From assembly GCA_044229975.1 (NCBI GenBank), contig JBGARZ010000002.1:128001-192000 (forward strand): DNA of 64,000 bases, in the 5' to 3' direction. This DNA is from Polyangiales bacterium (GTDB taxonomy: Bacteria; Myxococcota_A; Polyangia; Polyangiales; Ga0077539). Under the pieces are notes generated by a model. It ran no database searches. It was given only the letters and a program-made list of their open reading frames with translations, and was not told where the DNA came from. Numbering within the stretch: the first letter of the stretch is position 1; each line of letters starts with the position of its first letter. Below, piece after piece: positions 47,021 to 57,242 of this stretch. The translations under genes and the position numbers were made by a program.

Positions 47021-48205
47021 ATGCGCATCGCCCACCTCGCCGACCTCCACATCGGGCGGGTCTTCCACGGCCAGTCGCTCATCCCCGACCAGCGCCACAT
47101 CCTGGAGCAGATCACCGCCCGGCTGCGCGCCGCCGAGGTCGATGTGCTCGTGCTCGCGGGCGATCTCTACGACCGCGCGCTGCCGAGCCGCGACGCGGTG
47201 CGCCTCGTCGATGACTTCCTCCACGAGGCCCGCGCGAGCCTGGGGCTTCCTGTCATCGCGATCGCTGGAAATCACGACAGCGGCGAGCACCTCGGCTTCG
47301 GTGCCTGGATGTTCGCGCAGGGCGACCTGCACCTCCGCGGTCGCATCGACGGACCCCTGCGCCCCGTCACCCTCGAAGACCGCCACGGCGAGGTGACGTT
47401 TTACCCGGTTCCGTATGTCGAGCCCGAGGGCGCCGCCGCGCTCTTCGTTCCTCCCGGGGCCGAGGCGCCCGTCATCGGCGGCACGCTCACCCACGGCGAG
47501 ACCGTCGAAGCGCTGCTCGCGCCCGCGCACGAGCACCGCGTGGCGCACGGCGTCCGCCGCTCGGTGGTCATCGCCCACGCCTTCGTGCGGGGCGCCGTGG
47601 CACCGATCGAGTCGCCGCGCTCGGAGCGGAGCCTCTACCTGGGCAACGTGGGCGCGGTGCCCGCGTCGCACTTCGACGGGTTCTCCTACGTGGCCCTCGG
47701 GCACCTGCACCGCCCGCAGTGGATCGGCGACGACCGAAGGCTGCGCTACGCGGGCGCTCCCCTGCGCTACGCCTTCGAGGAGACCGACGACCCGCGCACC
47801 CTCTCGGTGGTGACCGTCGACGCGGACGGTGCGTGCACGCTCGAAGAAGAGACGCTCTCCCCGCGACGCGCGCTCGGTCGGGTGCGCGGTGACCTCGCGA
47901 CCCTGCTCGGCGACCCGGCGCTGGAGCCATACACGACCCGGTATGTGCAGGCCGTGCTGACGGACCCGTTGGTCCCACAGCAAGCGATGGACCGACTGCG
48001 CGAGCGCTTTCCACACCTGCTCGAACTTCGCCGCGCACCCTCGCCTGGCGAGCCGCTGGTCGTCGCGGCGCAAGGCACCACGGAGCACCGCGGCCCGGCG
48101 GAGGTCTTCGAGGACTTCTTCCGGCGGCATGGCTCGGGAGAAGTGACCGCCGCCGACCGTGCGGTCTTCGCCGAAGCGCTTCGGGCCACCGAGGAACCCG
48201 CGTGA
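47021..48205 (+). CDS. sbcD: Exonuclease SbcCD subunit D (Mre11 homolog)
   Basis: DLHIG, GDLYD, GNHDS, AHAF, LGHLH phosphoesterase motifs. Confidence 0.93.
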   Translation: MRIAHLADLHIGRVFHGQSLIPDQRHILEQITARLRAAEVDVLVLAGDLYDRALPSRDAVRLVDDFLHEARASLGLPVIAIAGNHDSGEHLGFGAWMFAQGDLHLRGRIDGPLRPVTLEDRHGEVTFYPVPYVEPEGAAALFVPPGAEAPVIGGTLTHGETVEALLAPAHEHRVAHGVRRSVVIAHAFVRGAVAPIESPRSERSLYLGNVGAVPASHFDGFSYVALGHLHRPQWIGDDRRLRYAGAPLRYAFEETDDPRTLSVVTVDADGACTLEEETLSPRRALGRVRGDLATLLGDPALEPYTTRYVQAVLTDPLVPQQAMDRLRERFPHLLELRRAPSPGEPLVVAAQGTTEHRGPAEVFEDFFRRHGSGEVTAADRAVFAEALRATEEPA

Positions 48206-51200
48206 AGCCCCACTCCCTCACGCTGCGGCAGTTTGGTCCCTACGCCGACCACACCGTCGACATCGAACCCTTCCACGGCGCCGGGCTCTTCCTCATCCAC
48301 GGCGACACGGGCTCGGGCAAGAGCACGCTGCTCGACGCCATGTCGTGGGCGCTCTATGGCCGCGGCCTCGGCGACCGCACCACCGACGAGATGATCCGCA
48401 ACGTCGGCGCACCGCCCGAGCTCCCCACCGAGGCGTCGCTGGAGTTCTCGCTCGGCCCGCGTCGCTACCGGGTCACGCGCACGCTGGAGCCCGAGCGCAC
48501 CTCCCGCCGCGGAACCGTCAAGCGCGCCCGCACCACCGCCTCGCTCCAGTGCCTCGCGGGCGATCCGCAGTTCGCGGTGGTGGGCGGAGCGAAGGAGGTC
48601 ACCCAGGCGATCGCCAACCTATTGCAGCTCCCGCACGAGCAGTTCTCGCGGGTGATCGTGCTCCCGCAGGGTGAGTTTCGCGACCTGCTCCTGGCGTCGG
48701 CGAAGCAGCGCGAGCAGCTGCTGGAGCACCTCTTCGGCACCGAGCGCTACGCCCGCATCGAGGAGCACCTCCGCACGCTCGATCAGGCCGCGCGCGCCAC
48801 CCTCGACCGCGCCGACGCCGCCATCGCGGCGGTCTTCGCTGCGGTCGGAGCCGTCGACCTTCCCGACCTCGACGCCAAGGCCGCCGACGCCCGCCGACGC
48901 CTCGCCGAGGGAGACATCGCCATCGCCGAGGCGCGCGCCGCGGCCGACGCCACCCTCGCGGCGAAGTCGTCCGCGCGCGAGCAGGAGCGCCGCAACGAGC
49001 GCCGCCGCGCTCACCTCGCCGCGCTGCGCGAGATCTCCGACGCCGAAGCGACGATCGGGCAGGTCCGCGCGCGCCTCGACCGGGCCGTCGCTGCGGGCCG
49101 TTGTCTCGACCACGTCACTCGTTGGCGTGCCGCAACGGCCGCCCGCGAGCGACGACGCATGCAGCTCGACGAGGCCCGCGCGGCGTGCAGGCGCCTCGGG
49201 GTCGAGCTCACTGCGGACGAGTTCGACCCCGCCGGCCTCGAAGCGCGGGAGGCGTCGCTGCGGGACAACGCGGGTCGGGCCGCTGCGATGCGGGTGTTGG
49301 CCGACGACGCACTCCGCATCGCCGCCCTGGAGCGCGACATTCGAGAGGGCCACGACACCATCGAACGCCTCGTGGCCTCGCTCGCATCGCGCGAGCTGGC
49401 TGTCGCCGACGCGGCCGCGCGGCGGGACGAACTCGACGCCCTGGTGGCCGCCCACGACGCCGCGCTCTCCGACGAAGCTTCCCTGCGCGCTCGCCTCGAC
49501 AACCTCGTCGCGCGGCTGCAGCGCGCCGTCGATCGACGGTCGCAGGAGGACGCCTTGCGTGGGCTCGAGCGCGCGCTCCGCAACGCTCGCTCGCTCGAAC
49601 GCGACGCCGACGAGGCCTGGCGCGAGGCGTCGGCCGCCGACGAGCGCACCCGACGAGCGCACCTGCACGCGGAGGCCGTGAGCCTGGCCGCGAGGCTCGT
49701 CGCGGGAGAGCCGTGCGTGGTCTGCGGTTCGCGCGAGCATCCCGCTCCCGCGGTCGCTCTGGAAGTACCGCCGTCCGCTCCCGCGGGTGATGCCGCTCGG
49801 GTGGAGGAGCTGGCGGCGAAGCGCGAGAAGGCTCGGCGTGAGGTGCTGACGCTGGAGGTGCGAGTCGAGGAGGCGACCGCGGCGCTGCGCTCGGGCGGAG
49901 ACGCGGAACCCACGGACGAGGAGGCACTGACCGCGGAGGTGGCGTTGGGTCGCGACGCGCTCGCGACGCTGAGGCGCCGACGCCTCGACCTGGACGCCCT
50001 GCGACGGAAGCGGTCGACGCTGGTCGAGGAGTACGACCGCAACTCCGCTGCGATCGGCCCCGAACGCGCGAACCTCATCGGCCTGCGAGCGCGCGTGGCG
50101 ACGATGGAGGAGACGGCGGCCCGTGGCCGAGCGCGCCTGTCCGACGCAGGAGTGGACCCGGCGCGCCTCGAAGAGACGCTCACGGCGCTCGACGATGCCA
50201 TCGCGCGGGAGACCGAGTCGCTCCGCGCGGCGAAGTCGCGTCGTGACGATGCGACCCGACGGCTCGCGGCGGCGGAAGGAGCGACGCCAGCGTTGGAGGC
50301 CGCGCTCGACCGCGCGTCGGCCCTGGTGGATGAGGCACAGGAGCACCTTCGCGTGGCGATGCGGGAGGGAGCCTTCGACGATGAAGCCGCGGTGGAGTCG
50401 GCGGTGCTCACGGCCGAGGAGAGCGCCCGGCTGCGCCACCAGGTGGAGTCTCACGTCCGGTCCGGGGCGATGCATCGCGAGGCGATCGACGTGTTGGGGC
50501 CCGAGGAGTCCGACGCTTCGGCGCTGGTGCGCTCCCTCGCGGAGGCTGAAGCGGGGCAACGGACGCGGCTCGACGCGCTCCAACGCGAGGCGGGCGTCGC
50601 GCAGTCGCTGCTCGCAGCCCTCGAACGCCATCGGCATACGCTCGCGACGGCGAGCGCGGCGAGGGAGACGGCGGCGGCCCGCTCCCGCGAGGTGCGCCGC
50701 GTGTCCGAGGCGGCCAACGGCAAGGGTCCGACGAAGGTACGCCTTAGCCGCTATGTGCTGCTCGACCTCTTCGACCGCGTGGTCGCGAGCGCCAGCGCGA
50801 GCCTGGAGGCGGTGAGCGATGGGCGATATCGCCTCCGTCGGCAGGAGCGCGCGTTGACGGGTCACGAGTTCGATCTGGTCGTCGACGATGCGTACGTCGG
50901 CGGAGCGCCGCGACCGGCGGCGAGCCTCTCGGGGGGCGAGGTGTTTCTCGCGTCGTTGGCGATGGCGCTCGGGCTGGGCGAGGTGCTCCAGGCGTGGTCG
51001 GGCGGCATCCGCGTGGAGTCGCTCTTCGTCGACGAGGGCTTCGGCGCGCTCGACGAGGACACCATCGAGCGCGCCATCGAGCTGCTCGAACGCCTCCCCT
51101 GCGGCGCCCGTATGGTGGGCGTCGTGTCGCACGTGCCCGAGCTCCGCAAGCGCATCCCCGCGCGTCTGGAGGTGCTCCGTGGCGACCGCGGTACGCACAC

Positions 51201-51234
51201 CCGGTGTTCACTGCGTCATCGCGGTGGCCGTTGA
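48202..51234 (+). CDS. sbcC: SbcC SMC-like ATPase (Rad50 homolog)
   Basis: GDTGSGKST, LPQGEF Q-loop, CVVCGSREHP zinc hook, LSGGE, LFVDEGFGALD, SHV. Confidence 0.93.
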   Translation: MKPHSLTLRQFGPYADHTVDIEPFHGAGLFLIHGDTGSGKSTLLDAMSWALYGRGLGDRTTDEMIRNVGAPPELPTEASLEFSLGPRRYRVTRTLEPERTSRRGTVKRARTTASLQCLAGDPQFAVVGGAKEVTQAIANLLQLPHEQFSRVIVLPQGEFRDLLLASAKQREQLLEHLFGTERYARIEEHLRTLDQAARATLDRADAAIAAVFAAVGAVDLPDLDAKAADARRRLAEGDIAIAEARAAADATLAAKSSAREQERRNERRRAHLAALREISDAEATIGQVRARLDRAVAAGRCLDHVTRWRAATAARERRRMQLDEARAACRRLGVELTADEFDPAGLEAREASLRDNAGRAAAMRVLADDALRIAALERDIREGHDTIERLVASLASRELAVADAAARRDELDALVAAHDAALSDEASLRARLDNLVARLQRAVDRRSQEDALRGLERALRNARSLERDADEAWREASAADERTRRAHLHAEAVSLAARLVAGEPCVVCGSREHPAPAVALEVPPSAPAGDAARVEELAAKREKARREVLTLEVRVEEATAALRSGGDAEPTDEEALTAEVALGRDALATLRRRRLDLDALRRKRSTLVEEYDRNSAAIGPERANLIGLRARVATMEETAARGRARLSDAGVDPARLEETLTALDDAIARETESLRAAKSRRDDATRRLAAAEGATPALEAALDRASALVDEAQEHLRVAMREGAFDDEAAVESAVLTAEESARLRHQVESHVRSGAMHREAIDVLGPEESDASALVRSLAEAEAGQRTRLDALQREAGVAQSLLAALERHRHTLATASAARETAAARSREVRRVSEAANGKGPTKVRLSRYVLLDLFDRVVASASASLEAVSDGRYRLRRQERALTGHEFDLVVDDAYVGGAPRPAASLSGGEVFLASLAMALGLGEVLQAWSGGIRVESLFVDEGFGALDEDTIERAIELLERLPCGARMVGVVSHVPELRKRIPARLEVLRGDRGTHTRCSLRHRGGR

Positions 51235-51266: not shown

Positions 51267-52268
51267 ATGCGTCGAACCGCGATCCTGGGTGTTGGTCACT
51301 ACGTTCCGACCCGCGTCGTCACCAACGACGACCTGGCGAAGCTCTTCAACACGAGCGACGAATGGATCGTGCAGCGCTCCGGCATCCGCGAGCGCCGCTA
51401 CATCGAGGGCGACGGCGTGTTCGCCAGCGACCTCGCGGTGCCCGCGTGCAAGATGGCCTGCGAGCGGGCCGGCGTGGCGCTCTCCGAGATCGACGCGATC
51501 ATCTTCGCGACGCTCTCGCCCGACGCCTTCTTCCCAGGCACCGGGTGCTTCCTGCAAGCGAAGCTCGGCCTGCCGGGCATCCCCGCGCTCGACATCCGCA
51601 ACCAGTGCTCTGGCTTCCTCTACGGGCTCTCCATCGCGGATGCGTGGATCCGTGCTGGTGTCTACCGCCGCGTCCTCCTCGTGGGCGCCGAGGTGCACTC
51701 CACCGGACTCGACTTCTCCGACGCGGGCCGCGATGTGACCGTGCTCTTCGGCGACGGCGCCGGCGCCGTGGTGCTCGGTCCGACCGAGGAGGAGGGCCGT
51801 GGCCTGTTGAGCCTCACCCTCGGCGCCGACGGCCGCGGCGCCACCGACCTCTGGATCGAGGCGCCCTCCTCGGGCCGCTCGCCCGACCGCATCACCAAGG
51901 AGATGATCGACGAGCGCCGCCACTTCACCCGGATGAACGGCAAGCAGGTCTTCCGCTGGGCCACCGAGAAGATGCCCGAGGCGTCGCGCGCGGTGCTCGC
52001 CGAGGCGGGGCAGACCACCGCCGACATCGACCTCTTCGTCCCGCACCAGGCCAACCTCCGCATCAACGAGCTCGTCGCCCGCAAGCTCGAACTCCCCATG
52101 GACAAGGTCGTCACGACCATCGACCGCTACGGCAACACGACGGCCGCCTCGATCCCGCTGTCGCTCTCCGAGGCGCTCATCGCCAACCGCGCGGGTCCCG
52201 GCTCGCTCGTGCTCTTCGCCGCCTTCGGCAGCGGCTACACCTGGGGCGCCGGTATCGTCCGACTCTGA
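51267..52268 (+). CDS. fabH: Beta-ketoacyl-ACP synthase III family
   Basis: NQCSGF, FGDGAGA, PHQAN, GNTTAAS catalytic triad. Confidence 0.92.
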   Translation: MRRTAILGVGHYVPTRVVTNDDLAKLFNTSDEWIVQRSGIRERRYIEGDGVFASDLAVPACKMACERAGVALSEIDAIIFATLSPDAFFPGTGCFLQAKLGLPGIPALDIRNQCSGFLYGLSIADAWIRAGVYRRVLLVGAEVHSTGLDFSDAGRDVTVLFGDGAGAVVLGPTEEEGRGLLSLTLGADGRGATDLWIEAPSSGRSPDRITKEMIDERRHFTRMNGKQVFRWATEKMPEASRAVLAEAGQTTADIDLFVPHQANLRINELVARKLELPMDKVVTTIDRYGNTTAASIPLSLSEALIANRAGPGSLVLFAAFGSGYTWGAGIVRL

Positions 52269-52269
52269 G

Positions 52270-53379
52270 CTACTGACGCCGTGTCGACGGTTGCACGACG
52301 TGCGTCACGCCGAAGCGCCCCTGGGTGCGGCGCACGGCGTAGCGACCGTCGGGCGGGGCCTTCGACACCGGGCACAGCGCCGCCGCATTGAAGGGGCACG
52401 CCCGGCACTTGCCGCGCGCCACGGTGCCTTCGGGGGAGCGCTCGCCGGTCCAGTACGAGGTCGCCCAGTGGAGGTCGCGCTCGACCCGCTGGCGCGAGTG
52501 GCGGAAGACCCACAGCCCGTACGCCTCGTCGTCGACGCGCCGCACCGTCAGCCCTGAGAGCGGGTCAGGCAATCCGCTCGGGGGTCGCGCGTCGGTGGCG
52601 CTCAAGCCCGCGCGCGCCACCTCGAAGGCCGCTTCGGCGATGGTGTGTGCGAGCGCGTCGTTGACCCGTCGACCGCGCGGCAGCACCGCCACTCCGTAGA
52701 GCAGTCGATCGGTCTGGAACCCCATGGACTCCAGCATCCGGCCGTACGCCTCGACCTGCACCACGTGCGACGGAAACAGCTCGCGTCGCCCCGAGAATTT
52801 GAACTCCAGCACCAGCCGCGCGCGCCGCCCTTCGAGGTGGATGCGGTCGGCCCGACCCACGAGGCGCACCCCGTGTATCTCCGCCGTCACGGGCATCTCT
52901 ACCAGCTCCAGCGGCTCGCCCGCGGTGATGGCTTCGCTGATCTCCTGCTGCGAGATCTCCTCGGCCTCGGCCTCGAAGGCAGCGTGCCCGGCGGCGCCCG
53001 CTGCGAGCTCGGCGCTCTCGGTGCGAAGCGTGTGCGTCCGCGCGAGGTGCACCTGCATCTCGCAATAGAACTGGTTGGCCAGCGTGCTCACCGACACCCG
53101 GGGAGGGCCCGCCATGCGCGGCCCTTCGACGAAGCGACGAATCGCGGGCAGGCGCTCGGCGGTGAAGAGCGCGTCGAGGGTGGTCTCCATCCCGAAGCGG
53201 CGGAGCGAGGCGTAGTAGCGACCGACGGGTTCGGGGAAGATCCCCGCGCCGTGCAGGGCCTCCCACACGGCCCGAGGCGACCCGAGCGCGCCGACGATCT
53301 CGTAGAACCGCGGCGCGAGCGTGGCCCGCGCGTGTGCGATTTCGAGGAGATGGGGCAGGTCGAGGAGCGGGGGGTTCAT
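52270..53379 (-). CDS. Cas4/Exo5-like PD-(D/E)XK nuclease with Fe-S cysteine staple
   Basis: SVSTLANQFYCE, G..GH, GRAD, EFK, QVEAY, C-terminal CRAC-x7-C. Confidence 0.85.
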   Translation of the reverse strand: MNPPLLDLPHLLEIAHARATLAPRFYEIVGALGSPRAVWEALHGAGIFPEPVGRYYASLRRFGMETTLDALFTAERLPAIRRFVEGPRMAGPPRVSVSTLANQFYCEMQVHLARTHTLRTESAELAAGAAGHAAFEAEAEEISQQEISEAITAGEPLELVEMPVTAEIHGVRLVGRADRIHLEGRRARLVLEFKFSGRRELFPSHVVQVEAYGRMLESMGFQTDRLLYGVAVLPRGRRVNDALAHTIAEAAFEVARAGLSATDARPPSGLPDPLSGLTVRRVDDEAYGLWVFRHSRQRVERDLHWATSYWTGERSPEGTVARGKCRACPFNAAALCPVSKAPPDGRYAVRRTQGRFGVTHVVQPSTRRQ

Positions 53380-53451
53380 CGTCGAGGGAGGACGGGCGCA
53401 GTGTATCCCGACTCCCCCGACGGGAGCGCCGAACATCCCGAGGTCGGGCGT

Positions 53452-54354
53452 TCAGGCAGCTTGCGAGTCGGCGGCACCGTTGGTGCTACCGCGCCGCGTG
53501 TCTTCCTCGGCGATGGCCTTCTTGAGCCACACCTTGGCGTTCTTCATGCGGCCTACTTCCTCGGTTCGCTTGCAGAGCGCCCGCCACGCGGCCTCGCGGT
53601 CAGCCACCGGCAGGGGTGCCAGCTCGGCGCGGAACTTCATCCACACCGCCACCGACTCCCCGGGCAACTCGATCTCGTTGAGCCGCGCGTAGAAGCCACC
53701 GAGCGCCGGGTGGGCCGTCGTGGGGTCGGGCGTCGGGTCGTTGGCCGGCGTCTCGTCCGCGGCTTCGGCCAGAGGGTTGACCTGGCTGAAGTCCACGCGC
53801 CCACCGGGCTCCTGCGCGCCCGCCGGGATGGTCTCGATCTCCATCTCGTCGAGCACCCCGAGGCCCAGGATGGACAACGTCGCGCGCCGCTTGGCCTTAG
53901 TTTCAGCCTTCATCAGCATGTTGACCGGGTCGATGACCGGCAGCGTCGCCGTCGCCGTCTCGACGCGCCCGTTGGGCAGCGACGCCTCGCACACCGCGTA
54001 GACCAGCTTGGTGCCCGCGAGGTCGATGACCTTCGGGCCGTCGATGATCCGGCGCGTGACCCGGTGCATCGCCGCGAGCTGATCGGTCGCGCCGCGCGTC
54101 GCGTAGAGAACCTCCTTCCCGTTGAGCCGCAGAAACGCGAAGGGCTGCGCATGGGGGTTGAGCCCGAGGCCCTCGCACATCTGCACGTAGAAGCGCGTCC
54201 GCTCCGCCGGCCCCAGGCCCGACAGGTCGCCGCGCAGCACGATGGAGTCGATGACCTTCGCACCCGTGCGCTCGTCCACCGCGTAGTCCACGCGCTCGGG
54301 CGTCGCGGTCGCCTTCGTCGCCTTGCTCTTTGTCTCGTTCTTTTCAGTAGTCAT
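53452..54354 (-). CDS. Phage-type single-strand annealing protein (Bet/RecT-like)
   Basis: GDLSGL..AER..FY...C..LGLNP...PF..L.LNGK.VLY and MKAETKAKRRATL motifs typical of phage annealase-like proteins; adjacent exonuclease. Confidence 0.7.
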   Translation of the reverse strand: MTTEKNETKSKATKATATPERVDYAVDERTGAKVIDSIVLRGDLSGLGPAERTRFYVQMCEGLGLNPHAQPFAFLRLNGKEVLYATRGATDQLAAMHRVTRRIIDGPKVIDLAGTKLVYAVCEASLPNGRVETATATLPVIDPVNMLMKAETKAKRRATLSILGLGVLDEMEIETIPAGAQEPGGRVDFSQVNPLAEAADETPANDPTPDPTTAHPALGGFYARLNEIELPGESVAVWMKFRAELAPLPVADREAAWRALCKRTEEVGRMKNAKVWLKKAIAEEDTRRGSTNGAADSQAA

Positions 54355-54372
54355 GGCTCGTCCTCTTCCCTT

Positions 54373-54768
54373 TCACTCCACATCCGTCGCGGGGTCGAAA
54401 CCCGCCTCATCCGCGGTCTCAGCGTCGGGCTCGTCCATCGTCTCCAGCGCGGCGACGAAGGCCTCCGAGCGCTCATTGCAAAACGCCTCGAACTCCATGT
54501 CGCCCGCCAGCGCCGCCTCCGGGTCGGCGGGCAGCACGTCGTTGGCGGGCAGCAGCTCCGACCAGAACAGCGCCTCCACCGCCGGAACCCCCCAGCGCCG
54601 TTGGGCCTCGCGCAGCACCCGCTCCTTCTTGAAGCGGGGGTGGGCCTTCCAGTCGGCGTAGCTGAGCTCGGCCCGCAGGCGCACCAGCTCGTCGAGCTCA
54701 TGCTGCGACTCCACCCGCCGCTCGTCGTAGATCGGGGTCGTGGGGTGGCGGTCTGCAATATTGCTCAT
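54373..54768 (-). CDS. Acidic small hypothetical protein (131 aa)
   Basis: RBS GAAGGGA upstream of ATG; about 31 Asp/Glu vs 14 Lys/Arg; first gene of the annealase/nuclease operon. Confidence 0.7.
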   Translation of the reverse strand: MSNIADRHPTTPIYDERRVESQHELDELVRLRAELSYADWKAHPRFKKERVLREAQRRWGVPAVEALFWSELLPANDVLPADPEAALAGDMEFEAFCNERSEAFVAALETMDEPDAETADEAGFDPATDVE

Positions 54769-54902
54769 GGTCGTCGTCCCTTCGTTGGGGATGGTCGCCG
54801 CGGGGGTCGGAGCGCCATTGCCTGCGCGCTTGCTTCGCTCGTCCATCACGAGGAACAAGATAGGTCGACCCCCTCCCCCGCGCCGCACCACGCAAGGGTC
54901 GT

Positions 54903-54992
54903 GTGACGTAGTCTGTCCTCGTTACGGATGCGCGGGAAAGCCAGAGCTCTCAACCGATACGAGCACCGAGGGTCGTGACAGATTACGTCACG
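54903..54992. promoter_or_regulatory. Pair of inverted operator-like sites GTGAC-N7-GTC(AC)
   Basis: 54903-54917 GTGACGTAGTCTGTC and 54977-54991 GACAGATTACGTCAC are reverse complements with 1 mismatch; 54974-54992 is itself CGTGAC-N7-GTCACG. Confidence 0.55.
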
Positions 54993-55613
54993 TCAGGGTT
55001 GCGGGACGACCTTCGGGCGCGTGGTCGCACCGACCGGTCGCAGCACGCCCGGGCGGTCGGCCCGACGTGGCGTGGCGAGGGCGCGGTCGTACCACTCGAC
55101 CAGCGTCCCCCGCTCGTGGGCGCTCTGGGCTCCGACCGCCAGGCGCAGCCACTCGCCCGTCGCCCGTTCGCCCGCCGCGCGCGCCACCGCTCGCAGCGCG
55201 ACGGCCACCGCGTGGTCGGGACGCAACGCCTCCAAGGCCTCTTCCAGCGCGTCGTCCCCGTCTCGGTTGACCTTGGCGGTGGGCTGCGTCGTCGCCGCCC
55301 TCCGACCACCGCCCACCAGGTCTGGGACGGCCCCCACCACCGCCCTCGCGAAGGGCCGCGGGTCGGGCTTCGCCGGTGCGTCGAAATAGTCCGCGGGCAG
55401 CCCGTACGCCTGCACCACCGCCATCATCACGTCGCCGCCGAGCGCACGGTGCCCGCCCAGGATGGCTGCCACGGTGCCCTGCTCGCGGCCGATGGACGCC
55501 GCGAAGGCCCGCTGCGTGAGCTTCGTCCCGCGCGCCGCCCCCAGCGCGTCGAACAGCTCCGCGAGCCGCTCGCGCCTCCTGCGGCTGAGCTCCTTCGACA
55601 CCGGACGCGGCAC
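54993..55613 (-). CDS. XRE/CI-like helix-turn-helix regulator (start uncertain, 55601-55649)
   Basis: LTQRAFAASIGREQGTVAAILGGHR...VQAYGLPADYF HTH_3 pattern; no LexA-type peptidase domain. Confidence 0.8.
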   Translation of the reverse strand: MPRPVSKELSRRRRERLAELFDALGAARGTKLTQRAFAASIGREQGTVAAILGGHRALGGDVMMAVVQAYGLPADYFDAPAKPDPRPFARAVVGAVPDLVGGGRRAATTQPTAKVNRDGDDALEEALEALRPDHAVAVALRAVARAAGERATGEWLRLAVGAQSAHERGTLVEWYDRALATPRRADRPGVLRPVGATTRPKVVPQP

Positions 55614-55644
55614 GCCATCGGATCTACCAGGAACTCCAGCGTTT

Positions 55645-55682
55645 AGCAATCATTGCTTGACTGCTGTTGATATCTTGCGCAA
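55645..55682. promoter_or_regulatory. AT-rich divergent control region with palindromes
   Basis: AGCAAT-C-ATTGCT (55645-55657), GATATC, TTGCGCAA (55675-55682) between divergent genes. Confidence 0.45.
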
Positions 55683-55693
55683 TACATCGGGGC

Positions 55694-56041
55694 ATGAATG
55701 GCGATGCTCCCAACCCGCTGCGACCGCGGCTCCAGGTGCTCGACGGCGGGGCCCAGGGCCGTCGGCGCAAGCCCGTTCGGCTGACGCTCCTGCGCGACCC
55801 GGCTCGCGCCCACGCCGTCGACACGGACGACCTGCCCAACCCCGGTGAGCCCATGACGCACCTCGAGCACGCCATCGCGGCGCTGCGCGAGGCCGCCCAG
55901 GCCGAGACCGTCACCGGCCGCAGCGACGGGGTCATCGACGCGCTCGATCACCTCACCCGCGAGCTGAGCGTGCTCTTCGACGACGAGGTCGCTCGCACCG
56001 CCCTGCTCCGCATCTCCGGCCAGCTCCGCCGCCCACGCTGA
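55694..56041 (+). CDS. Small hypothetical protein divergent from the XRE gene
   Basis: 115 aa ORF with coding bias; LQVLDGG motif, helical C-terminus. Confidence 0.6.
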   Translation: MNGDAPNPLRPRLQVLDGGAQGRRRKPVRLTLLRDPARAHAVDTDDLPNPGEPMTHLEHAIAALREAAQAETVTGRSDGVIDALDHLTRELSVLFDDEVARTALLRISGQLRRPR

Positions 56042-56093: not shown

Positions 56094-57242
56094 ATGGTTG
56101 CCGCCAAGCGCTCGAAGCCCCCTCCCCCGCTCACCCTCACGACGCCGACCCCGGTGCTCCGCCGGGCGCACTTCCTGATGCGCCTGTCGCGCGCCTGGGA
56201 CTGGCGCTTCGAGGCCATGGCCCGCGTCGGCCGCATCGGCCGCTGGTACAGCGCCGTCGGCAACGAGTGCACCACCGTGGGCACCGCCGTCGCGCTCGGC
56301 GCCAACGACGCGCTCTCGACGGTGCACCGCGACCTCGGCGCCGTGCTCACCACGTACCTCGACCCGACGCGCCTCGCGCCGTCCCTCTTCGAGGCCGCCG
56401 ATCGCACCGAGTGGGACGCGCTGCGTCCTCCGCCGCAGGCGCTGCTCGATCAGCTCGCGAGCCAGGTGTTCGGCCGTCGCGGCGGGTTCACCCGCGGGGT
56501 CGATCGCTCGTTTCACTACGGCCTGGTGAAGCCCGGGTGGGGCATCCGGCACGTCGGGATGATCTCGCACCTGGGGTCGATGATCCCGGTCGCCGCGGGG
56601 CTCGCGCTCGCCAACGTGCAGGACGGCAACGACCGCGCGGTGCTCGGCTTCATCGGCGAGGGAGCCACGTCACAGGGCGACTTCCACGAGGCGCTCAACC
56701 TCGCGGGCGTCATGAAGCTGCCGCTCATCCTGGTGGTGGAGAACAACCGCTACGCCTTCAGCACGCCGCTCTCGGAGCAGTTCGCGTGCGAGAAGCTCAG
56801 CGATCGCGCGGTGGGCTACGGCATCGCGGGCGAGACCATCGACGGCCTCGACTTCGACGCCGTCCACGGGGCGATGGAGCGCGCGATGAAGAGGGCGCGC
56901 TCGGGCGAAGGGGCGACGCTGCTGGAGTGCATGCTGCCGCGGATGCGAGGGCACGCAGAGGGCGACGGGAGCTATGAGCTCATCCCGCAGGCCGAGCGCG
57001 AGGACTACCTGAAGCAGGACCCGCTGGTGCGCTTCGAGGCGTCGCTCATCGCACGCGGCGCCGCCACCGAGGAGCGCGTGAAGGAGGTCACCGAGGTCAC
57101 GCGCGCCATCATCGAAGATGCGGTGGAGCGGGCCATGGCGACGGAGGAGCCCGAGCTGTCCGAGGCGACGCGTCCGGTGTTTGCGGCGGGTGAGGTCGCG
57201 ACGGCGTTTGCGCGCCAGTCGACGGAGGTGACCGGTGGCTGA
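56094..57242 (+). CDS. TPP-dependent 2-oxoacid dehydrogenase E1 alpha subunit
   Basis: GEGATSQGDFHEALN...ENNRYAFS TPP motif, RMRGH. Confidence 0.9.
   Translation: MVAAKRSKPPPPLTLTTPTPVLRRAHFLMRLSRAWDWRFEAMARVGRIGRWYSAVGNECTTVGTAVALGANDALSTVHRDLGAVLTTYLDPTRLAPSLFEAADRTEWDALRPPPQALLDQLASQVFGRRGGFTRGVDRSFHYGLVKPGWGIRHVGMISHLGSMIPVAAGLALANVQDGNDRAVLGFIGEGATSQGDFHEALNLAGVMKLPLILVVENNRYAFSTPLSEQFACEKLSDRAVGYGIAGETIDGLDFDAVHGAMERAMKRARSGEGATLLECMLPRMRGHAEGDGSYELIPQAEREDYLKQDPLVRFEASLIARGAATEERVKEVTEVTRAIIEDAVERAMATEEPELSEATRPVFAAGEVATAFARQSTEVTGG

Follow-up and report, generated by a model that had tools for sequence, protein, structure and literature searches.

A predicted annealing gene of phage descent, inherited vertically in one myxobacterial family and probably induced by DNA damage

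What keeps a block of phage-like recombination genes between fabH and the gene of a 2-oxoacid dehydrogenase E1 alpha subunit, when no prophage surrounds it? The question is raised by five genes in a 64,000-nucleotide stretch of a Polyangiales bacterium chromosome (the window; G000:C38:128001-192000 in our numbering, in which G000 is the genome holding the window and G-, C- and L-numbers stand for genomes, contigs and loci). An earlier note on this DNA had described the block as a domesticated, inducible module resembling lambda Red, with an XRE-type helix-turn-helix repressor, a small divergent open reading frame (ORF), an acidic protein, an annealase and a nuclease. The reading that we prefer, with a probability of about 0.62, is that the block holds a phage-derived annealing gene, which would have been inherited vertically and would be induced by DNA damage through a WYL-domain activator like DriD or DdaA. 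The block is real and conserved, and it is more integrated into its host than the note supposed: a 17-bp GTGACA-N5-TGTCAC box, missed at the time, is probably the main control element and always accompanies the annealase. The annealase is likely a damage-inducible tool of host repair and not the leftover of a virus, because its operon shares this box with recA, ssb and gyrase genes.

All five ORFs between fabH and E1 alpha were recovered, uninterrupted and in the order and orientation first described, by a codon-usage gene caller trained on the genome. The GC content of the block is that of its flanks, and each of its genes is single-copy in G000. The 25 flanking proteins between 27.6 and 63.6 kb contain no match to an integrase, virion or replication PHROG (E ≤ 1e-10), which agrees with the original statement that no such genes lie nearby; the window has no tRNA or tmRNA gene. 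The elements of the annealase-nuclease part and the flanking genes are:

51267..52268, plus strand: flanking gene fabH (profile match)
52270..53379, minus strand: EXO5/Cas4-type PD-(D/E)xK nuclease, 369 aa (Pfam Exo5, motifs, Foldseek)
53400..53409, minus strand: putative -10-like element directly upstream of the nuclease start, similar in most orthologous loci
53452..54354, minus strand: predicted single-strand annealing protein, 300 aa (AlphaFold model, Foldseek, C-domain fusions)
54373..54846, minus strand: acidic protein, 157 aa, pI 4.5 (start from orthologue alignment)
54857..54864, minus strand: putative -10-like hexamer for transcription of the acidic and annealase genes, at 40 nt from the proximal box
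54903..54919, unstranded: proximal 17-bp GTGACA-N5-TGTCAC-type box, predicted site of the WYL activator (motif)
54975..54991, unstranded: distal 17-bp GTGACA-N5-TGTCAC-type box (motif)
56094..57242, plus strand: flanking gene of 2-oxoacid dehydrogenase E1 alpha (profile match)

The 300-aa protein has no sequence match in Pfam, PHROG, NCBIfam, PADLOC or PDB, and none of the 133 aligned members of its family matches the known Pfam families of annealases (RecT/Bet PF03837, Rad52_Rad22 PF04098, Erf, Sak3) at E ≤ 0.05; one viral member matches bet_lambda weakly (E 0.006). Its AlphaFold (AF2) model (pLDDT 88.7) comprises an N-domain of Rad52/RecT fold (aa 28-163), a linker, a helical C-domain (aa 216-295) and a C-terminal -AA. 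The N-domain is modelled as a beta-hairpin, a helix, a three-stranded sheet and a crossing helix (E72-77, E80-85, H87-96, E100-139, H146-163), the same hairpin-helix-sheet-helix motif that the available part of PMC11783212 gives for the Rad52 superfamily. Foldseek placed human RAD52 first among PDB structures (E 6.8e-4), followed by Mgm101, RecT and Sak, and among viral models the protein matched Bet, RecT, Erf and Sak3. A wide structural search returned RAD52 (Z 6.4), yeast Rad52 (Z 6.7) and the Red-beta N-domain (Z 6.2 over 128 residues), and the basic and aromatic residues of the annealase are conserved at 87% or more. The Bet/RecT-like annealase of the earlier note thus stands as to its predicted fold but belongs to no catalogued Bet/RecT family.

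A search with the N-domain collected 6,471 cluster representatives at E ≤ 0.001 and still 5,608 at the stricter limit of 1e-10, most of them from phages and unannotated; in viral sequences it reached at least 458 confirmed viral stretches, and the three GenBank phages that it matched all carry the annotation 'hypothetical'. Cultured Campylobacter phages encode a family member with 43% identity, likewise annotated hypothetical (L096; PP935708.1, 14164-14901). The annealase fold is also supported by the viral gene context: the 135 immediate neighbours scanned from 76 viral loci include six exonucleases (RecE-like, Cas4-type and other), two SSB, two NinB and one Mu Gam as well as several replication initiators, the majority of the 135 being without a match. 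The same helical C-domain occurs fused to N-domains of RecT (L081, L089), Rad52_Rad22 (L079, L085) and AAA_24, that is, Sak4-like, type (L078), mostly in prophage-like loci of relatives. Comparable domain shuffling has been reported for annealases of Firmicutes (PMC8093625, in its available part), and the C-domain of Red-beta binds Exo and SSB (PMC11611040, likewise). We conclude that the 300-aa protein is likely an annealase, as modelled, of an uncatalogued family. No description of this annealase family, of the cassette or of the regulon was found in the literature, where subscription papers were mostly outside the reach of the search; the supplement of PMC11783212 contains no Myxococcota names, and its table gives only accession and superkingdom, so that the screen of unannotated proteins in that paper may include members. 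Three further observations concern this family or its C-domain. An SSB-like tail with a final Phe is present in 12 of 76 viral members (L112, L114, L121, L122, L124, L133 and others). Two loci lie in apparently non-phage surroundings: at L089 (G011:C134) a gene of the RecT/Bet family that has the C-domain described above adjoins NIF3 and SLT genes, and L073 (G014:C4) has a second copy of the new-family annealase.

The box, which in the window stands upstream of the acidic and annealase genes, was found in one or two copies in 21 of 21 nuclease loci (the window and 20 fetched loci), a count that is circular since the matrix was built from those loci; the genome-wide site statistics and the tests on recA and the WYL gene are independent of the training set. 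In G000, whose sequence is 85% coding, 32 of the 33 sites scoring ≥16 are intergenic, and 12 shuffled palindromic matrices gave 0-14 sites each, 0-5 of them intergenic. An upstream site scoring ≥14 is found for 52 of the 7,944 called genes. The box precedes recA, ssb, gyrA, gyrB, ruvB, recN, radA, priA, topB, top6B, yoaA/dinG and recQ, and also cas3, DISARM drmA, a DNA methylase gene, the WYL gene itself and several unknown genes; the names of the known genes were verified. Thirty recA loci from 61 genomes were compared: all 9 of the family carry the box upstream of recA and none of the 21 others does; the second recA of G000 has no box. The box also stands before two SWIM-type genes, and one of the unknown genes with the box encodes a product with an SSB-like acidic tail (C23:547902-548459). 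The top6B gene (C38:241759-243792), for topoisomerase VI subunit B, has the box in addition to the genes of gyrase and topoisomerase III.

The distance from the end of the proximal box to the -10-like hexamer is 22 nt in three loci, 30-31 nt in 12 and 39-41 nt in five, with one locus unmatched. A strict sigma-70 scan of the locus found no promoter, and all -10 and -35 elements were assigned by eye from alignments. The box lies upstream of the predicted -35 element and therefore in the position of an activator site. It is absent from 13 of 20 paralogous loci, including most prophage-like ones. The candidate activator is encoded at C38:976008-977012 of G000 (L193:2009-3013); it has the Pfam domains HTH_11, WYL and WCX, and its best PDB match is DriD (E 1.3e-18). 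Upstream sequence was available for 29 orthologues of its gene, and in 26 of them the box lies at the gene start. The gene was found in 29 of 30 family genomes; in 30 other genomes no match exceeded 38% identity. The available part of PMC12392091 describes the DdaA motif as CGWCA-N5-TGWCG, about 50 bp before the start site of repair, CRISPR and restriction-modification promoters, and the DriD motif as CGAC-N7-GTCG. By this analogy the annealase operon is probably under a DriD/DdaA-like, LexA-independent damage activator.

Two other candidates for the box binder were rejected. LexA was rejected because 0 of 6 lexA upstream regions carry the box; these regions share a different, GTTCA-containing element. 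The adjacent XRE protein was rejected because the boxes persist in six loci without XRE; no XRE homologue was found in G016 and G017. The GTTCA-containing element is common to the upstream regions of lexA, recA and top6B in G000, of which recA and top6B have it in addition to the WYL-type box, and judging from these sequences it is likely the LexA box of the family.

Of 30 family genomes, 27 have the annealase and 28 the nuclease; neither turned up in the 30 other genomes of the order that were searched. In a sample of the phylum (eight candidates scored per genome), the annealase profile matched 2 of 249 non-family genomes, one of them only over the C-terminal part. The suggestion of a native recombineering system for Myxococcota has therefore to be narrowed to one uncultured family; the close homologues, all metagenome-assembled, are labelled Polyangiales, Myxococcales or Deltaproteobacteria bacterium. 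The annealase gene is directly upstream of the nuclease gene in 20 of 21 loci, an adjacency kept at several different chromosomal sites. The position between fabH and E1 alpha is shared in part: one or both genes are nearby in 12 of the 21 loci. The module is retained in about 90% of family genomes, over nine genera. In 12 pairwise comparisons dN/dS was 0.04-0.19 for the nuclease and 0.07-0.22 for the annealase, far from the value near 1 that was named as a sign of decay, and 0.05-0.58 for the acidic, XRE and small genes, while dS of the block genes was like that of fabH and E1. Trees of 19 genomes largely recover the genera, with some deep conflicts, and patristic distances correlate with those of the WYL gene (r 0.91 and 0.84). 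The view of a domesticated module is upheld by the family-wide synteny and the low dN/dS of annealase and nuclease; on this sequence evidence the annealase is domesticated and vertically inherited in the family.

The nuclease scores 33.6 bits with Pfam Exo5 (cut-off 25), and profile and motif comparison also assigns it to the PDDEXK_1 type with four cysteines. Its model (pLDDT 78.1) is matched best in Foldseek by human EXO5 (E 4.9e-6), then by Cas4 and AdnA. Residues C106, C325, C328, C336, D178, E192, K194, Q208 and Y212 do not vary among the 36 sequences compared: D178...E192-F-K194 with QxxxY (Q208-Y212) constitutes the catalytic motif, and the cysteines, one N-terminal and three C-terminal, are the predicted 4Fe-4S ligands. 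The proposal of an Fe-S nuclease of Cas4/Exo5 type in place of lambda Exo is confirmed to this extent. The four-cysteine arrangement around a RecB-like active site is the one of human EXO5, Cas4 (SSO0001) and the AdnA and AddB nuclease domains; in contrast to these, the nuclease described here is bacterial and of this family only (28 loci in a scan of species genomes, labelled Polyangiales, Myxococcales, Deltaproteobacteria or 'Proteobacteria bacterium'), with a helical N-terminal extension of about 90 aa. A pattern-based scan, which detects close relatives only, found it in no viral contig and thus lends no support to a phage origin of the nuclease. A CRISPR Cas4 (TIGR00372) was considered and rejected: the score is 27.2 bits against a cut-off of 65, the neighbours are housekeeping genes and the window is without cas genes. 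Upstream of the nuclease gene there is no GTGACA-N5-TGTCAC box, and the -10-like element suggests a promoter of its own. No terminator-like site was found on this strand, and read-through from upstream may occur.

The acidic gene is present upstream of the annealase gene and intact, as had been stated, but its 131-aa length was revised: it probably starts at 54846 (157 aa), the equivalent ATG or GTG being found 7-9 nt after a -10-like hexamer in orthologues, and the former start, 54768, is in frame and internal. Its N-module stands alone in the prophage-like locus L071 and its C-module is found in the viral contig L100. The acidic protein gave no family match in Pfam, PHROG or NCBIfam, no atlas match and no likeness to Gam, and the Gam-like function that its position in the gene order had implied is not supported by these searches.

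The annealase tail of -AA is shared by 76 of 120 close homologues, as opposed to 1.8% of G000 proteins, and is found in 0 of 37 nucleases and 0 of 65 XRE proteins. The tmRNA tag of G000 also ends in -AA, and an SspB-like gene is present in that genome. An -AA end can be read as a degradation signal for ClpXP, although no paper directly on this point came up in the literature. The acidic proteins, many annealase linkers and the small upstream genes of genus g9 (L065-L069) have a conserved short motif, (P/A/V)ND, which resembles the start of the G000 tmRNA tag and may, as a sequence, be a site for an SspB-type adaptor.

The remaining part of the block is made up of the following elements:

54755..54764, unstranded: operator GCAATATTGC inside the acidic gene, likely XRE site, only exact copy in the genome
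54993..55613, minus strand: XRE-type helix-turn-helix regulator, 206 aa, with a helical C-domain (HTH_3, PHROG regulators, 65 homologues)
55646..55685, unstranded: operator GCAATCATTGC at 55646-55656 and a degenerate copy at 55677-55685, overlapping predicted divergent promoter elements
55694..56041, plus strand: small divergent ORF, 115 aa, with a conserved helical C-terminal part and no family (conservation across loci)

The XRE protein, with its start refined to 55613, matches HTH_3 (E 0.027) and PHROG regulators (E 3e-4); HTH_3 is its only Pfam match at E ≤ 0.1, and no S24 peptidase was matched. Sites of the GCAAT(N)ATTGC type are present in 15 of 15 loci with XRE and in 0 of 6 loci without it (0.007 expected per region); they overlap the predicted divergent promoters, and an extra site lies inside the acidic gene in 9 of the 15 XRE loci. 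From this sequence pattern XRE is likely the protein that binds them; the 10-mer at 54755-54764 occurs once in the 10-Mb genome. The palindromic sites first reported are therefore real but of two kinds, these operators and the GTGACA-N5-TGTCAC boxes. The XRE gene is missing at 6 of 21 nuclease loci, and where the annealase-nuclease module has moved (G019) or disappeared (G006), XRE has remained with E1 alpha. In G019 one contig carries the box with the acidic, annealase and nuclease genes and another carries XRE with the small ORF; each unit keeps its own motif, so the two are separable. A divergent small gene and operators on both sides of the repressor gene do recall the lambdoid early-left region, but the repressor has no S24 match, and the claim that a cI-type protein is the main switch is not supported, XRE being absent from six loci and separable from the annealase. 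Homology of XRE and the small ORF was also considered and dropped (hhalign probability 0.2% against the XRE C-domain).

Second chromosomal cassettes were seen among housekeeping genes in six loci, namely L080, L082, L087 and L088 (in G015, G021, G014 and G020) and L084 and L086 (in G019 and G030). Each has XRE and an annealase that has diverged within the same family (hhalign 99.9%), usually also an HExxH protein (ImmA/IrrE-like by eye), and four of the six have a WYL-type box. By sequence they look like repeated domestication.

The preferred reading may be put together as follows. Single-stranded DNA arising from damage would activate the HTH-WYL-WCX protein, which would bind the boxes upstream of the promoter and switch on the acidic-annealase mRNA together with RecA, SSB and topoisomerases, and which, with a box at the start of its own gene, would repress itself. 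The annealase would bind single-stranded DNA through its basic N-domain, contact SSB or some other host partner by its helical C-domain, and anneal or protect complementary single-stranded ends alongside RecA and AddAB, the Fe-S nuclease, expressed from its own promoter, trimming or generating such ends; ClpXP might clear the annealase afterwards by way of the -AA tail. The XRE-small ORF pair would be what remains of a lambdoid immunity region, separate from the module and autoregulated, and in some genera XRE might add repression as a further input, acting at the operator within the acidic gene.

A number of observations speak against this reading. The fold match is moderate: human RAD52 is the sole PDB match at E ≤ 0.001, the wide structural search puts partial matches of 55-75 residues to uS5 and helical bundles (Z 7-8.3) above RAD52 and Red-beta, and hhalign of the annealase with small Bet and Rad52 alignments from relatives was not significant. 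Five of 20 chromosomal annealase copies lack the -AA tail, which is also common in more distant homologues (53 of 144). In the N-domain tree the chromosomal annealases do not form one clade and prophage copies nest among them; three prophage-like copies branch inside the lineage of their own host, and this nesting suggests a continuing exchange, which may have gone in either direction. G006 is without the module in an otherwise intact locus, fabH being directly beside XRE on one contig, and G008 has lost the annealase and has a broken acidic gene, with the nuclease kept. RecA, RecO and RecJ are kept in five of five genomes searched and an AddAB-like pair is present in G000, so that the module is accessory; Ku was not found in any of the five, which are 90-96% complete. 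No box precedes recJ, recO or addAB. Finally, G000 has five WYL genes, and the regulator was assigned through co-occurrence and analogy.

Could the block be a coupled machine of Red type after all, with the nuclease resecting double-stranded ends for the annealase, the acidic protein blocking AddAB and the neighbouring XRE acting as the main switch? Its gene order resembles gam-bet-exo, the annealase-nuclease adjacency persists at several chromosomal sites and the operators flank XRE like OR and OL, one of them being in the acidic gene in 9 of 15 XRE loci. We nevertheless consider this rather unlikely, given that XRE is absent from six loci, separable and without a match to a self-cleavage domain, that the EXO5-type nuclease, unseen in viral contigs by the pattern-based scan, follows a -10-like element of its own and persists in G008 after loss of the annealase, that no copy of this nuclease goes with the prophage annealases that share the C-domain, and that no Gam likeness was found for the acidic protein. 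The block shares with lambda Red (Gam-Beta-Exo), Rac RecET and MxRecET of Myxococcus a predicted Rad52/RecT-fold annealase with a helical C-domain, an adjoining PD-(D/E)xK exonuclease and a phage origin. It differs in its annealase, which is outside the RecT/Bet Pfam, in its EXO5/Cas4-type nuclease with four cysteines, and in its lack of a surrounding prophage, its family-wide vertical inheritance and its host damage-regulon box. It is not a member of lambda Red because its exonuclease is not of the YqaJ lambda-Exo type and no cleavable repressor was found. RecET is itself a captured prophage pathway, and capture of phage annealases is known, though, in the available part of PMC8987985, as sporadic and flanked by phage genes.

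Suppose instead that the regulon is real and the box is bound by some other protein, such as a cleavable repressor like DdrO, with the WYL gene as just one target. The gene set does resemble the radiation/desiccation response (RDR) regulon of Deinococcus, in which, according to the available part of PMC8533742, IrrE and DdrO control recA, ssb, gyrA, gyrB and ruvB among others through a 17-bp palindrome (RDRM); pairs of XRE and HExxH proteins exist in some relatives; and the box-to-(-10) distance ranges from 22 to 41 nt, unlike the promoter distance of DriD sites, which is constant (PMC13004042, in its available part). This too is unlikely, as the boxes lie upstream of the predicted -35 where activators bind, the motif resembles DriD/DdaA sites, and the WYL orthologue and the box share a distribution. 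Deinococcus provides a parallel all the same: DdrA is a radiation-induced Rad52 homologue that binds and protects 3' ends (PMC515370, available part), and, as is predicted for the annealase, this chromosomal member of the Rad52 superfamily shares its control with recA, ssb, gyrA, gyrB and ruvB via a 17-bp palindrome independent of LexA. The two differ in annealase family and motif and in the regulator, a predicted WYL activator here and a cleaved XRE repressor in Deinococcus; the locus described here also has a linked EXO5-type nuclease, and close phage relatives still circulate. DriD of Caulobacter and DdaA of Moraxellaceae resemble the candidate activator in being HTH-WYL-WCX proteins with a GAC-N7-GTC box geometry and repair, CRISPR and restriction-type targets. 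The regulon predicted here is from another phylum, has other flanking bases (GTGACA-N5-TGTCAC) and includes a captured phage annealase, none being named for DriD or DdaA in the available parts of PMC13004042 and PMC12392091.

A module for anti-phage defence or the uptake of foreign DNA, which might process phage ends or serve as a decoy for phage annealases, would account for the box before cas3, DISARM drmA and a DNA methylase gene, as in the DdaA regulon (PMC12392091, available part), for the weak matches of the nuclease to Cas4 models and for the sequence shared by prophage and host annealases; with the locus fixed among housekeeping genes and not in a defence island, the Cas4 scores below cut-off (27.2 against 65 bits) and PADLOC matches absent for the other four proteins, we think it improbable. 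That the block is a decaying prophage remnant without host function is largely refuted and has very little left in its favour: the losses in G006 and G008 and the higher dN/dS of the acidic, XRE and small genes are set against about 90% retention over nine genera, annealase and nuclease dN/dS of 0.04-0.22, and a host box in 21 of 21 chromosomal loci that is absent from most prophage-like copies.

A wider form of the preferred reading is tentative, and we hold it at somewhat less than even odds. The annealase would be the founding member of a sixth Rad52-superfamily annealase family (more than 6,000 clusters, mostly phage) and a core gene of one myxobacterial family, under a new WYL regulon that senses single-stranded DNA; paired with a bacterial EXO5, it would serve a RecA-independent resection-and-annealing repair that parallels eukaryotic EXO5/RAD52 and still exchanges sequence with resident prophages. 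If this or the narrower reading is true, a large unannotated family of predicted annealases would be a new source of recombineering enzymes for high-GC bacteria. That value is lowered by the existing pair for M. xanthus, MxRecET, although this is RecT-type: it came from a PSI-BLAST search started with E. coli RecT and limited to more than 30% identity (PMC13454183, available part), a kind of search that is unlikely to return the annealase family described here. Myxococcota would also have a LexA-independent damage regulon with a defined box, a candidate activator and targets, extending the DriD/DdaA model to another phylum, and a phage recombination gene would have been rewired into host repair, convergently with Deinococcus DdrA. 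The host is uncultured, yet each component is accessible to assays in vitro or in laboratory strains of E. coli or M. xanthus.

Directly before fabH in the window are sbcD and sbcC (47021-51234). We found no GTGACA-N5-TGTCAC box upstream of sbcD in G000. The pair is one gene away from the cassette in several genera and adjoins the nuclease gene in G011, and the dN/dS of sbcC is relatively high (0.11-0.48).

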